NCBI GenBank assembly: GCA_964439595.1
Contig: CAYTOK010000006.1
Coordinates: 6,713-70,712 of the forward strand
Direction: 5' to 3'
Source: an uncultured bacterium
GTDB taxonomy: Bacteria > Chlamydiota > Chlamydiia > Chlamydiales > Rhabdochlamydiaceae
Length of the DNA: 64,000 bases
Under the pieces are notes generated by a model. The model was not told the DNA's origin. It saw only the letters and a program-made list of their open reading frames with translations, and ran no database searches. Shown here piece by piece: positions 31,183 through 33,732 of the stretch (within the stretch, counting starts at the first letter, position 1; each line of letters starts with the position of its first letter). Position numbers and translations under genes: made by a program.

Positions 31183-31919
31183 TTGCTTATCCCCCATTTT
31201 TTTTCTAACTGAGCAACCTTCCCTTCCGCAATCAGCTCTTGAGTAGCCTTTTTTATCTGCTCAGCAAGCGCTAGTTCGTTTTTGTTGATCGCAATTCCAT
31301 TGCCTAAAGAGTATTCTTCAGGGCGTAAAGGCAAGTTCACCACCCGTAAATCAGGATACTGCGCCAGCAGAGTTTCAACTAAGGATGGGTCTGCAAGAGC
31401 TGCGCTAGATTTTCCAAAGCGGATTTCCATGACAGCATCGGTGATCTTTTCTACCTGCTTAAGATTTATCTCGGAATACCGCTTTAGTACGCTTTCTTGA
31501 AACGATCCAGCTTCAACGCTCACGGTATACTTAGCCAAGCTTGCCATAGAAGAAATTCCTATAGGGACCTTTTTCCAAAAAAGGACAGGCATTTCAGTTA
31601 CTTTTTCTCCTTGGTAGTAAACCATTTCCATCTTCTTCTCTCTCTCCTCTGTGATGGAAATAGCCCAAATAAGGACATCAACTTTATTTTGCTGTAAAGC
31701 GAGTAAAAGACTCGGCATGCTGCCACAGTCTTTTAGCACAAGTTCTCTCCCCAACTTAGCCGATAGCTCTTTAGCAAAATCAACATCAAAACCTTCGTAA
31801 TCCCCCTTGCCATTTAGACTAACATAGGGCGCGTAGCCCGATGTGGTTCCTACCACAAGGAGCTTTTCTCCTGCAAAAATTTGCGCGGACAATAGCAATG
31901 TAAATAAATATTTTTTCAT
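31179..31919 (-). CDS. Family-3 periplasmic substrate-binding protein (ArtJ/HisJ-like)
   Basis: 246 aa. Signal peptide MKKYLFTLLLSAQIFA. LLVVGTTSGYAPYVSL..GDYEGFDVDFAKELSAKLG. First gene of a three-gene operon. Confidence 0.88.
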   Translation of the reverse strand: MKKYLFTLLLSAQIFAGEKLLVVGTTSGYAPYVSLNGKGDYEGFDVDFAKELSAKLGRELVLKDCGSMPSLLLALQQNKVDVLIWAISITEEREKKMEMVYYQGEKVTEMPVLFWKKVPIGISSMASLAKYTVSVEAGSFQESVLKRYSEINLKQVEKITDAVMEIRFGKSSAALADPSLVETLLAQYPDLRVVNLPLRPEEYSLGNGIAINKNELALAEQIKKATQELIAEGKVAQLEKKWGISK

Positions 31920-32007
31920 TTAAAAATCCTTAAAAAAAATGTAAATAAAAGAAAATGCGCGCCTAACAACTAGAAACAAAAGCTAGCGTTATTCGAGCAG
32001 TAAAAAA

Positions 32008-32076
32008 TTAGATATGATGATGATGATGGCAAGCGGGTGTGAAGAGTGACATGAAAGAAAAGGAATATGTACTCAT
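32008..32076 (-). CDS. Candidate 22-codon leader ORF with five consecutive His codons
   Basis: Minus strand reads GGGGGAGATCATT-ATG AGT ACA TAT TCC TTT TCT TTC ATG TCA CTC TTC ACA CCC GCT TGC CAT CAT CAT CAT CAT ATC TAA, giving MSTYSFSFMSLFTPACHHHHHI. The Shine-Dalgarno-like GGGGGAG ends 6 nt before the ATG. The stop lies 88 nt upstream of the SBP gene start. Confidence 0.35.
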   Translation of the reverse strand: MSTYSFSFMSLFTPACHHHHHI

Positions 32077-32341
32077 AATGATCTCCCCCGTTTGAAAGAT
32101 AGAAACCACTCTATCCCATTTACTATAATTTTACAATACCATTTTTATCTATCTCAGGAGAATCTCAGCACTTGCTGGGTCAGTGAATTCTCCTCGAGAA
32201 ATAATAAGTAAAAAAATATTATTCTTTTACCCATCTAAGGATGATGCTAGAAGTTATGTCTTTTATTTCTCAAAACTCTCATCCTGAAAAATTCTAAATA
32301 CAAGACAATGCTGCTAATAAAATCAGATGTGATATTTTACA

Positions 32342-33529
32342 TTAACTCCAGAAATAAAATAACGAAGACAAAAGGAAAGTCAAAAAAACAGGAACCTTAA
32401 TCGCTTTAAACCCAGTGAAATAATATATGATATTTAAAACAGTAAGAACTATCAATCCTGGATAACAAATTTGTAAAATAGGACTTAAGAATGCAGCAAT
32501 ACTAGAAAATCCTAAATTAGCAAAGCATGTTGTGATAAAAAGAGTCACTCCTAAAGCCATCATGGGATGTATTTTCTCCTTGCATAAATCTTTTTGTAGA
32601 TAATCTGCAAAAATAAGAGAAAGCGTTATGGCCGTTGTTAAGCAGGCTGTTACTATAGCAATAGAGGCAATAAACCCGCCAATAGGCCCAAGAAGTCTAA
32701 AAGCAATAAGGCTAAGAAGATCCTCAGAATTACCACTTGAAAAGTTTCCGTGGTATACAGATATAAAGGTAAGACCTATATAAGTAAAAAGTAAAAGAGC
32801 AGCAGCAATCAAACTAGAAAAAAGCATTTTCCTAGAAAGAGCCTTCTTTTGATCTAAAGAGGGGTTAAGATCTACTTTTTTTTGAAAATGGGGAAGAACT
32901 ACCGTGGCAAAAAGAAAAGCCGCTATAAGATCCATCGTATTATAGCCGCCAAGAAGTCCCTGAAAAAAACTAGAAGAAGGGCTAACCGAAATAGATGCTA
33001 TTGGCAATTTATGAAAAAAACCTGAAAAAAATAAAAAACCAAGGGACAACAGTAAAATAGGAGTTAAAACGATGCCAAGAAGTCCAATAAGGTTTTGTCT
33101 TCTAAAACTACAAAGAAAAATAACTAAAGCAGCCCCAATACTAAAAGCAGGCAAAGATAAATTCAAGCAATAGGGTTTAAACGTTGCATGCATTAGAGTA
33201 ATAAGACGGGGAATTACCCCAAAAGGCCCTAAAATAAGCTGCAAAAGTAAAAGTAGCATAACTCCTGGAATAGCCCCTAAACGGCCAAAAAAGCGACGGC
33301 AGTCGGCTTGAAAAAAAACCATACCGGCAAGCCCCAAGAAAGGAACAATAACCGCAGTTAGTCCAAGCCCCAAAATAGCATATCCCCAATTACCACCAGT
33401 AGCTTTCCCTATAAGCAGGGGAAAAATCAAATTACCGGCACCAAAGAACATAGAAAAAAGGGCAAATCCTGTAGCAAGAAGACTCGGTGACCTTTCTGTT
33501 TTTATTATTATCTCTTGCTCTGCTATCAT
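32342..33529 (-). CDS. brnQ: Branched-chain amino acid transport system II carrier (LIVCS family)
   Basis: 395 aa, ~12 TM. GFALFSMFFGAGNLIFPLLIG is the BrnQ signature. Confidence 0.88.
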   Translation of the reverse strand: MIAEQEIIIKTERSPSLLATGFALFSMFFGAGNLIFPLLIGKATGGNWGYAILGLGLTAVIVPFLGLAGMVFFQADCRRFFGRLGAIPGVMLLLLLQLILGPFGVIPRLITLMHATFKPYCLNLSLPAFSIGAALVIFLCSFRRQNLIGLLGIVLTPILLLSLGFLFFSGFFHKLPIASISVSPSSSFFQGLLGGYNTMDLIAAFLFATVVLPHFQKKVDLNPSLDQKKALSRKMLFSSLIAAALLLFTYIGLTFISVYHGNFSSGNSEDLLSLIAFRLLGPIGGFIASIAIVTACLTTAITLSLIFADYLQKDLCKEKIHPMMALGVTLFITTCFANLGFSSIAAFLSPILQICYPGLIVLTVLNIIYYFTGFKAIKVPVFLTFLLSSLFYFWS

Positions 33530-33732
33530 AAATCCCTCAATATTTTATTGTTTTAAGCGATTTTACCCTGATTTTTTTTTATCAACAATTAAAATTTACA
33601 CAAAAATGCATTTACTATTTATAAAATAAATATTATACACGTAAAAAACTTTAATAATTAGCCAATATTATATTTAACTAAATCCTTCTTTATTTTATAA
33701 TTACGCATAAAAACTATTTAAATAGGATTTAA

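Follow-up and report, generated by a model that had tools for sequence, protein, structure and literature searches.

We found that a 22-codon open reading frame (ORF) in a chlamydial genome is very probably a leader peptide that senses charged tRNA-His and whose stalling raises the expression of an ArtJ-like importer, as judged from comparative sequence analysis. The ORF lies in a 64,000-nt stretch of DNA from an uncultured bacterium of the Rhabdochlamydiaceae (assembly GCA_964439595.1, contig CAYTOK010000006.1, positions 6,713 to 70,712; hereafter the window), upstream of an operon that encodes a substrate-binding protein (SBP), a permease and an ATPase of the ATP-binding cassette (ABC) type. 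An earlier note on this DNA, made from the letters alone, had proposed a hisL-like leader that couples the importer to the charging of tRNA-His, and this proposal is now supported by its conservation at 76% of the orthologous loci, by the presence of the same element before five of five his biosynthesis operons and by the absence of hisD and hisG from the genome.

The leader, MSTYSFSFMSLFTPACHHHHHI, is read from the minus strand of the window between 32076 and 32008, with its ATG at 32076-32074, its TAA at 32010-32008 and a Shine-Dalgarno (SD) sequence GGGGGAG at 32089-32083, 6 nt 5' of the ATG. Re-reading of this strand confirmed the description given before, that is, 22 codons with a good ribosome-binding site (RBS) and five CAT codons near the stop. 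The upstream gap of about 420 bp measures 422 nt from the stop of brnQ (32342) to the start of the SBP gene (ATG at 31919), and 88 nt of it separate the leader from the SBP gene. In its own 1.99-Mb genome the leader is the sole short ORF with at least four contiguous His codons next to the stop. No other convincing amino-acid leader was found in the same genome, the region upstream of brnQ included.

Conservation of the leader and its association with histidine genes

Conservation of the mini-ORF and its His run upstream of orthologous operons had been named beforehand as a check. Of 77 further loci that we collected, 74 offered at least 250 nt of upstream DNA and were counted; any short ORF whose last 12 codons include 4 or more for His was taken as a leader. 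Such an ORF was present in 56 of the 74 loci, in several families of environmental Chlamydiota, compared with 0.5% of the random windows drawn from these loci (7 of 1291) and 0 of 74 on the reverse complement; the leader ORF occurs far beyond chance. In a panel of ten relatives, each ortholog locus with enough upstream DNA bears a His-tailed short ORF 77-143 nt before the SBP start, and distant SBP paralogues (34-36% identity) have no leader. All the orthologous loci in the named genome collection come from environmental Chlamydiota (Rhabdochlamydiaceae, Parachlamydiales and Simkaniaceae metagenome-assembled genomes, MAGs).

The 57 leaders have a median length of 25 codons, a median spacer of 85 nt and 3-8 His codons, 85% of which are CAT. 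The CAT:CAC ratio is 252:44 in the leaders versus 45:30 in the adjacent SBP genes. The last His is placed one codon before the stop in 43 of the 57, and the stop is TAA in 53. Whereas the N-terminal part of the peptide varies, the leaders retain the His run, the single codon that follows and the TAA. The number and spacing of the His residues vary between leaders (HHHHHI, HSHHRFHHS, HHHGHSSK), and the peptides share just the His run and a Ser/Leu/Phe/Pro-rich stretch encoded by pyrimidines, with no conserved arrest peptide.

The leader is missing in 18 of the 74 loci, mainly the more distant ones, plus one that has a transposase fragment instead. At the loci L010 and L082 (G018:C65, positions 1-230), which lack a leader, the C-terminal end of an integrase- or transposase-like ORF (…DETIALVEERLNNRPRKVLQFRTPIEVF) abuts the SBP gene and the contig ends, which suggests that an insertion sequence took the place of the regulatory region. 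Also, in two MAGs labelled 'Candidatus Dependentiae' and 'Pseudomonadota' (L097 and L099) a chlamydial-type SBP (45-46% identity) is accompanied by a typical His-leader (…YHHHLHHYSH and …LSHHHHHHTH). The finding suggests that chlamydial contigs were mis-binned or mislabelled, or else that the operon was transferred with its leader.

A pattern of four His codons, one further codon and TAA was searched for over 401 Chlamydiota genomes. It matched in 107 genomes, versus about 25 matches for the reversed control, and about 90 of the matches were inspected individually. The genuine leaders among these precede genes of three kinds, namely the ArtJ-like SBP operon in 10 cases, a symporter gene of the SSF family and the his operon. 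Most of the first 30 pattern loci turned out to be chance matches without a start codon, and the HHHH-stop matches in Chlamydiaceae-sized genomes (L114-L117) were also due to chance, as they fall inside an opposite-strand gene.

Histidine biosynthesis is rare in Chlamydiota, with hisG found in 5 of 400 sampled genomes. All five of these have a leader directly upstream of purH, 2.0-2.1 kb before hisG. The genes form a single operon, which consists of purH, hisI, hisG, hisD, hisC fused to a HAD phosphatase gene, hisB, hisH, hisF and hisA, with Pfam confirmation, and this gene order is identical in the three genomes in which the whole operon was read. At the five loci (L199, L200, L201, L203 and L204, in genomes G124, G273, G392, G270 and G288 respectively) the first gene, purH, encodes the enzyme that consumes 5-aminoimidazole-4-carboxamide ribonucleotide.

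One of these genomes, G392, bears both a his-operon leader and an importer leader. Furthermore, one genus provides both an importer leader (G161) and a his-operon leader (G124), which could be aligned along the entire regulatory region, about 290 nt in length, and with a third sequence added the mean column identity is 79%. The homology stops just before the RBS of whichever gene comes next. Because importer and his-operon leaders align and their homology ends at this boundary, one portable module serves the biosynthesis of histidine as well as its uptake. Other phyla likewise place histidine transporters and his operons under one control element, which may be HisR, a T-box or a His-leader attenuator, and the assignment of transporters to histidine ordinarily relies on such co-regulation (PMC9413887). 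The symporter case comes from genome G278 (locus L202, G278:C86, oriented positions ~97-195), where a His-leader, MKTKYLKKCPSNSPQANFAFISSVHHFHHHHS, with a perfect TTGACA-17-TATAAT promoter is followed, after a spacer of about 150 nt, by the gene of a 449-473-aa sodium:solute symporter (Pfam SSF). This symporter is a candidate histidine transporter of a second type, controlled in the same way.

The window belongs to contig 6 of a 1.99-Mb genome that is 97% complete. Neither hisD (histidinol dehydrogenase) nor hisG (ATP phosphoribosyltransferase) was found in it, and 14 of 14 control genomes were positive in the same search; since both genes are absent, the organism must import histidine. The operon downstream of the leader has the make-up of a polar amino-acid ABC importer, with three components that carry the corresponding family domains. 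The closest solved structures to the SBP are those of chlamydial ArtJ (3DEL, 3N26 and 3QAX, E 1e-40 to 1e-35 over the full length), and the similarity to HisJ and the LAO-binding protein is lower (E ~1e-13 to 1e-11). No NCBIfam equivalog reaches its cut-off for this importer, and because of this the substrate is not readable from homology. We assign histidine to the SBP only because of the leader and of its co-regulation with his operons. In this sense, the ArtJ-like importer is most likely the histidine uptake system of this auxotroph.

Architecture of the module and possible transmission of the stall

Nearly all loci show the same order of elements over about 200-290 nt: a promoter-like site, the SD sequence, the leader ORF with its His run, one codon, UAA, a U-run of 5-9 nt, a hairpin that we call P2, a U-rich tract, and the SD sequence and AUG of the first gene. 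The -10 element of the promoter-like site ends a median of 32 nt before the leader ATG. Pairs with at least 10 of 12 matches, a score of consensus match only, are seen in 26% of leaders and in none of the control windows (0%), and in the his-operon leaders near-consensus promoters occupy this position.

Between the SD sequence and the His run we found a helix, P1, in which the SD region of the leader pairs with the codons immediately 5' of the His run. In the closest clade it takes the form of GCAAGGAAG(A) opposite (U)CUUCCUUGC, and the window carries a compensated version in which both sides have changed together. With a mean duplex energy of -11.3 kcal/mol, P1 is more stable than the duplexes obtained with coding 24-mers (-7.9; p=3e-10) or with pre-His segments taken from other loci (-9.5; p=5e-8). 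The 24 nt before the His run are 79% pyrimidine, and the peptides are therefore rich in Ser, Leu, Phe and Pro. Three ribosome positions were modelled by constrained folding. P1 opens when the A site of the ribosome holds the first His codon, and it stays closed with the ribosome at the stop or with no ribosome at all.

The second helix, P2, begins a median of 8 nt after the stop. The earlier note had seen no clean terminator or antiterminator by eye and mentioned a UGCUCG...CGCGCA pairing followed by UUUUCUUUUAUUU. This pairing corresponds to a hairpin at 31999-31956 with an energy of -12 kcal/mol; a conserved, terminator-like hairpin is indeed present, and an antiterminator was not found. Across loci, with the hairpins taken by analysis of minimum free energy (MFE) domains, P2 has a mean energy of -10 kcal/mol and a mean z of -2.3 against dinucleotide shuffles (p=2e-18). 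In an alignment of 17 sequences, 87% of the cells of its upper helix are paired and 7 of 9 pairs show compensatory changes. The pairing exceeds all 500 shuffles and every slid register, and it includes G-U pairs, which fit a helix in the sense-strand RNA only. These figures come from explicit pair counting, as RNAalifold gave no consensus (three of the 17 rows were poorly aligned). A coarse detector of a hairpin followed by a U-tract found it in 28% of the leader spacers, in 21% of real convergent 3' ends and in 5% of ordinary 5' untranslated regions of the genome. Two loci (L058 and L069) have longer spacers, of 178-182 nt, in which extra GC-rich hairpins, such as CCAAAGGGCGCCAGCCCUUUGG and UUAAGGACGAAGUCCUUAA, separate P2 from the SBP gene and look like inserted repeat elements.

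According to the mechanism that we propose, a ribosome would stall on the five CAU codons of the leader when histidine is scarce and would proceed to the UAA one codon later when it is plentiful. The stall would raise the expression of the downstream ArtJ-like ABC importer, and the output of the module would act on the transcript and not on the downstream RBS. We infer the stalling itself, its direction (ON under starvation) and the output step; the direction is proposed because the module precedes his biosynthesis operons, which must go up when histidine is scarce. For the output, we tentatively put first, at a little under an even chance, premature termination at P2 and its U-tract, relieved by the stall through some further route.

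Several observations weigh against such a scheme. In the folding models P2 is indifferent to the His stall (pair probability 0.83 versus 0.83), and its bottom three pairs fall from 0.64 to 0.35 only with the ribosome at the stop, where it abuts or melts the base of P2; taken alone, this would predict the opposite logic. Only 28% of the spacers satisfy a strict hairpin-plus-U-tract test, and a consensus scan of the window did not call P2 a terminator. As for the substrate, the nearest characterised relatives of the SBP bind arginine. Finally, several explicit pairing tests across loci did not find an antiterminator. For a classical one, the SD/N-terminal, pre-His and His-to-U-run segments were paired with either arm of P2 and did no better than with the P2 arms of other loci. 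A role of P2 itself as antiterminator of a downstream mini-terminator, formed by its 3' arm and the sequence that follows, was rejected with 3 of 49 loci against 9.4 expected. Pairing of the released SD strand with the U-run and the P2 5' arm (-6.4 kcal/mol) was also rejected, random coding windows giving -7.3 kcal/mol.

A different output with the same sensor would need no RNA switch. Stalled and queuing ribosomes, the latter admitted by the freed SD sequence, might shield a C-rich, G-poor tract from Rho or from RNases, which we regard as possible but rather unlikely. In its full form, to which we give similarly limited credence, the output depends on Rho or RNases and the stretch of about 60 nt from the pre-His codons to the U-run is a Rho loading site. 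In starved cells the stalled ribosome would sit on the tract, and the opening of P1 would free the SD sequence, so that ribosomes queue and coat the leader; in replete cells the leader would be translated once, P1 would reclose, the tract would be bare and Rho would terminate at the pause at P2 and its U-tract. This logic resembles that of tnaC, speFL and cruR, and there is a precedent in upstream ORFs (uORFs) whose stalled ribosome shields a Rho utilisation (rut) site (PMC12360218). The stretch has 29.5% C and 6.4% G (C/G 4.6), a skew matched by about 1% of control windows, and the genome encodes Rho (Rho_RNA_bind match at 3e-33 in a 447-aa ORF). The model also agrees with the failure to find an antiterminator and with the opening of P1 only on a His stall, and it gives the correct physiological direction. 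However, the CAU codons, the U-run and the anti-SD tract largely impose the low G content, and CAU is favoured over the more C-rich CAC. P1 would sequester about one third of the tract in replete cells, leaving about 30 nt single-stranded, and the first gene follows after a short spacer (median 85 nt). The covariation of P2 is not explained by this model either.

The one structural effect seen in the models, the loss of the bottom pairs of P2 when the ribosome is at the stop, would suit an occlusion attenuator of the pyrBI/pyrE kind, with inverse logic, in which arrival of the ribosome at the stop codon melts P2 at its base and the operon is ON when tRNA-His is charged. The tight spacing, with P2 starting so soon after a stop that itself comes one codon after the last His, also agrees with it. 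We nevertheless reject this highly improbable reading because of the association with his operons: the same module stands before all five of them, and to shut them under starvation would be physiologically senseless. It would also be at odds with every known his regulon (PMC9413887) and would create a lethal positive feedback in an auxotroph. Even less probable is translational attenuation, as in ermC, where the stall would unmask the RBS of the SBP gene. The pre-His tract does resemble an anti-SD sequence, and some attenuators use an RBS-sequestering helix in place of a terminator (PMC9413887), but the SBP SD sequence pairs with the pre-His tract no better than controls do (-4.96 versus -5.09). 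The accessibility of the RBS is flat over the three ribosome positions (0.44, 0.43 and 0.46) and the same as in ordinary genes (0.435 versus 0.436). We disfavour this model because that accessibility does not respond and because the homology of the module ends before the RBS of the following gene. The least probable reading is that of a functional small peptide, either with a Cys/His-rich, metal-binding C-terminal tail or acting as a metal-sensing nascent peptide like CruR. His-rich tails bind Ni, Zn and Cu, a copper-sensing leader peptide is known (cruR; PMC12360218), and the earlier note had offered the C-HHHHH end as a small metal-binding peptide. This suggestion is not supported: nothing outside the His codons is conserved, the number and spacing of His vary, the Ser/Leu/Phe/Pro-rich composition is accounted for by selection at the RNA level for pairing with the SD sequence, and the element is tied to an amino-acid importer and to his biosynthesis operons, not to metal genes.

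Relation to known regulatory systems

The chlamydial leader, a probable sensor of charged tRNA-His, shares with enterobacterial hisL (Rfam His_leader RF00514; among the classical trp, thr, leu and phe leaders) a short ORF with an SD sequence, predicted in our case to be translated, His codons near its stop, and a hairpin with a U-tract before the first structural gene. Also, in five chlamydial genomes it precedes a his biosynthesis operon, as hisL does. Unlike hisL, the chlamydial element has no detected antiterminator or chain of alternative helices; its spacer, of about 85 nt, holds a single hairpin, and an extra helix sequesters the SD sequence of the leader itself against the pre-His codons. 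Its main target is an importer, and the phylum is Chlamydiota. The RF00514 covariance model gave no match over the whole window at the gathering score, nor within 31850-32350 at E<=10, and in the Rfam search of the window no family matched the leader element. The element would work like hisL and other leader-peptide attenuators but without an antiterminator, which is a defining feature of them. As the leader peptide with a regulatory run of codons is long established, the chlamydial element is a variant and not a new category.

Computational studies have described His-leader attenuators for Proteobacteria, Actinobacteria and some Firmicutes, among them attenuators upstream of histidine ABC transporters (PMC2965389, PMC9413887). 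In Firmicutes they are predicted before his operons and hisXYZ-type ABC transporters (Bacillus cereus group, Peptostreptococcaceae and Erysipelotrichales; PMC9413887) and, in bacilli, upstream of hisS/hisZ (PMC2965389). As in our loci, one type of leader governs both biosynthesis and uptake of histidine within a lineage; in contrast, the Firmicutes leaders are described with terminator and antiterminator hairpins, and both the transporter family and the phylum are other ones. The uORFs of tnaC, speFL and cruR also end by a pyrimidine-rich, G-poor tract, need no RNA antiterminator, give read-through by means of the stalled ribosome and include transporters among their targets (PMC12360218). They differ in that they stall at the stop codon through a conserved nascent peptide and a small ligand, whereas the chlamydial peptide is not conserved and its stall would take place at hungry His codons.

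Within the same phylum, the WWW motif of YtgCR in Chlamydia trachomatis couples translation to downstream transcription through tandem codons for a limiting amino acid (PMC7755916). That motif, however, lies inside a long coding gene, works through a trans-acting repressor and lowers downstream transcription upon stalling, and the chlamydial leader would be cis-acting. The YtgR/WWW system is reported to involve Rho-independent termination, and C. trachomatis is stated to lack TrpL-type attenuation, its annotated TrpL being atypical and unvalidated (PMC7755916). The importer itself shares with chlamydial ArtJ (3DEL, 3N26, 3QAX) and with HisJ/LAO the architecture of binding protein, permease and ATPase; the solved ArtJ proteins are named arginine-binding, whereas histidine is the probable substrate here. 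We found no report in the literature of a His-leader attenuator in Chlamydiae.

Features of the locus and significance

The features of the regulatory region and of the importer operon are collected in Table 1. On the other side of the leader gap from the SBP operon lies the gene of the BrnQ-type transporter (33529-32342). The divergent spacer upstream of brnQ (window 33530-33732) has a GC content of 0.23 and is without a leader-like ORF bearing runs of branched-chain amino-acid codons. On the minus strand, a strong imperfect hairpin, UCUCGAGGAGAAUUCACUG...CAAGUGCUGAGAUUCUCCUGAGA (window 32135-32215; -20.9 kcal/mol over 81 nt), with no U-tract after it, is situated past the brnQ stop and before the promoter-like site of the leader, whose candidate -35 it overlaps. 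It could be a 3' structure of brnQ or an operator-like inverted repeat.

Table 1. Elements of the leader region and genes of the ArtJ-like importer operon, in window coordinates.
Feature	Position	Strand	Basis or remark
Promoter-like -35/-10 pairs CTGAGA-18-TAAAAT and TAGATA-18-TATAGT	32122..32157	-	two overlapping pairs, 9/12 consensus matches each
P1 5' arm CAAACGGGGGAGA, contains leader SD GGGGGAG (32089-32083)	32082..32094	-	in MFE structure
Leader ORF MSTYSFSFMSLFTPACHHHHHI, stop included	32008..32076	-	ORF read; homologous ORF in 56/74 orthologous loci
P1 3' arm UCUUC...CCCG.UUG, pyrimidine-rich codons just before His run	32030..32045	-	duplex energy
Five consecutive CAT (His) codons, putative ribosome stall site	32014..32028	-	followed by ATC, then TAA
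U-run directly 3' of TAA stop	32002..32007	-	8 nt after stop 70% U across loci vs 49% in whole spacer
P2 hairpin UGCUCGAAUAACGCUAG...CUAGUUGUUAGGCGCGCA, terminator-like	31956..31999	-	-12 kcal/mol
U-tract UUUUCUUUUAUUU directly 3' of P2	31943..31955	-	12 nt after P2 62% U across loci
SBP gene with SD AAGGA (31931-31927), ArtJ-like periplasmic binding protein, 246 aa	31179..31931 (CDS 31919-31179)	-	Pfam SBP_bac_3 3e-24
ABC permease, 224 aa	30523..31197	-	Pfam BPD_transp_1; NCBIfam HEQRo_perm_3TM above cut-off
ABC ATPase, 240 aa	29814..30536	-	Pfam ABC_tran 1e-34

Chlamydiae are regarded as poor in cis-regulatory RNA, and TrpL of C. trachomatis is the single leader peptide so far proposed for them (PMC7755916). 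It is conceivable, though we consider it doubtful, that Chlamydiota own a family of histidine attenuators without antiterminator RNA, in which the His stall opens the SD helix and ribosomes coat a rut-like tract. If so, a phylum believed to be without leader-peptide attenuation would have its first amino-acid sensor that acts in cis, a hybrid between the hisL type, with its hungry-codon input, and the tnaC/speFL type, with its rut-shielding output; in addition, histidine would be assigned to the ArtJ-like importer of environmental chlamydiae as its substrate.

Whatever the output step, the leader appears as a well-supported amino-acid sensor that is present in several chlamydial families and reused on three kinds of operon (ABC importer, his operon and symporter). 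It gives a regulon-based prediction of the substrate, histidine, for a widespread ArtJ-like importer of environmental chlamydiae. The module of about 200 nt, with its SD-sequestering helix, a hairpin abutting the stop and no antiterminator, departs from the textbook model and may reveal a different route for the transmission of a stall. Furthermore, the leader may be taken as a marker of how host-dependent bacteria sense the amino-acid supply of their host.

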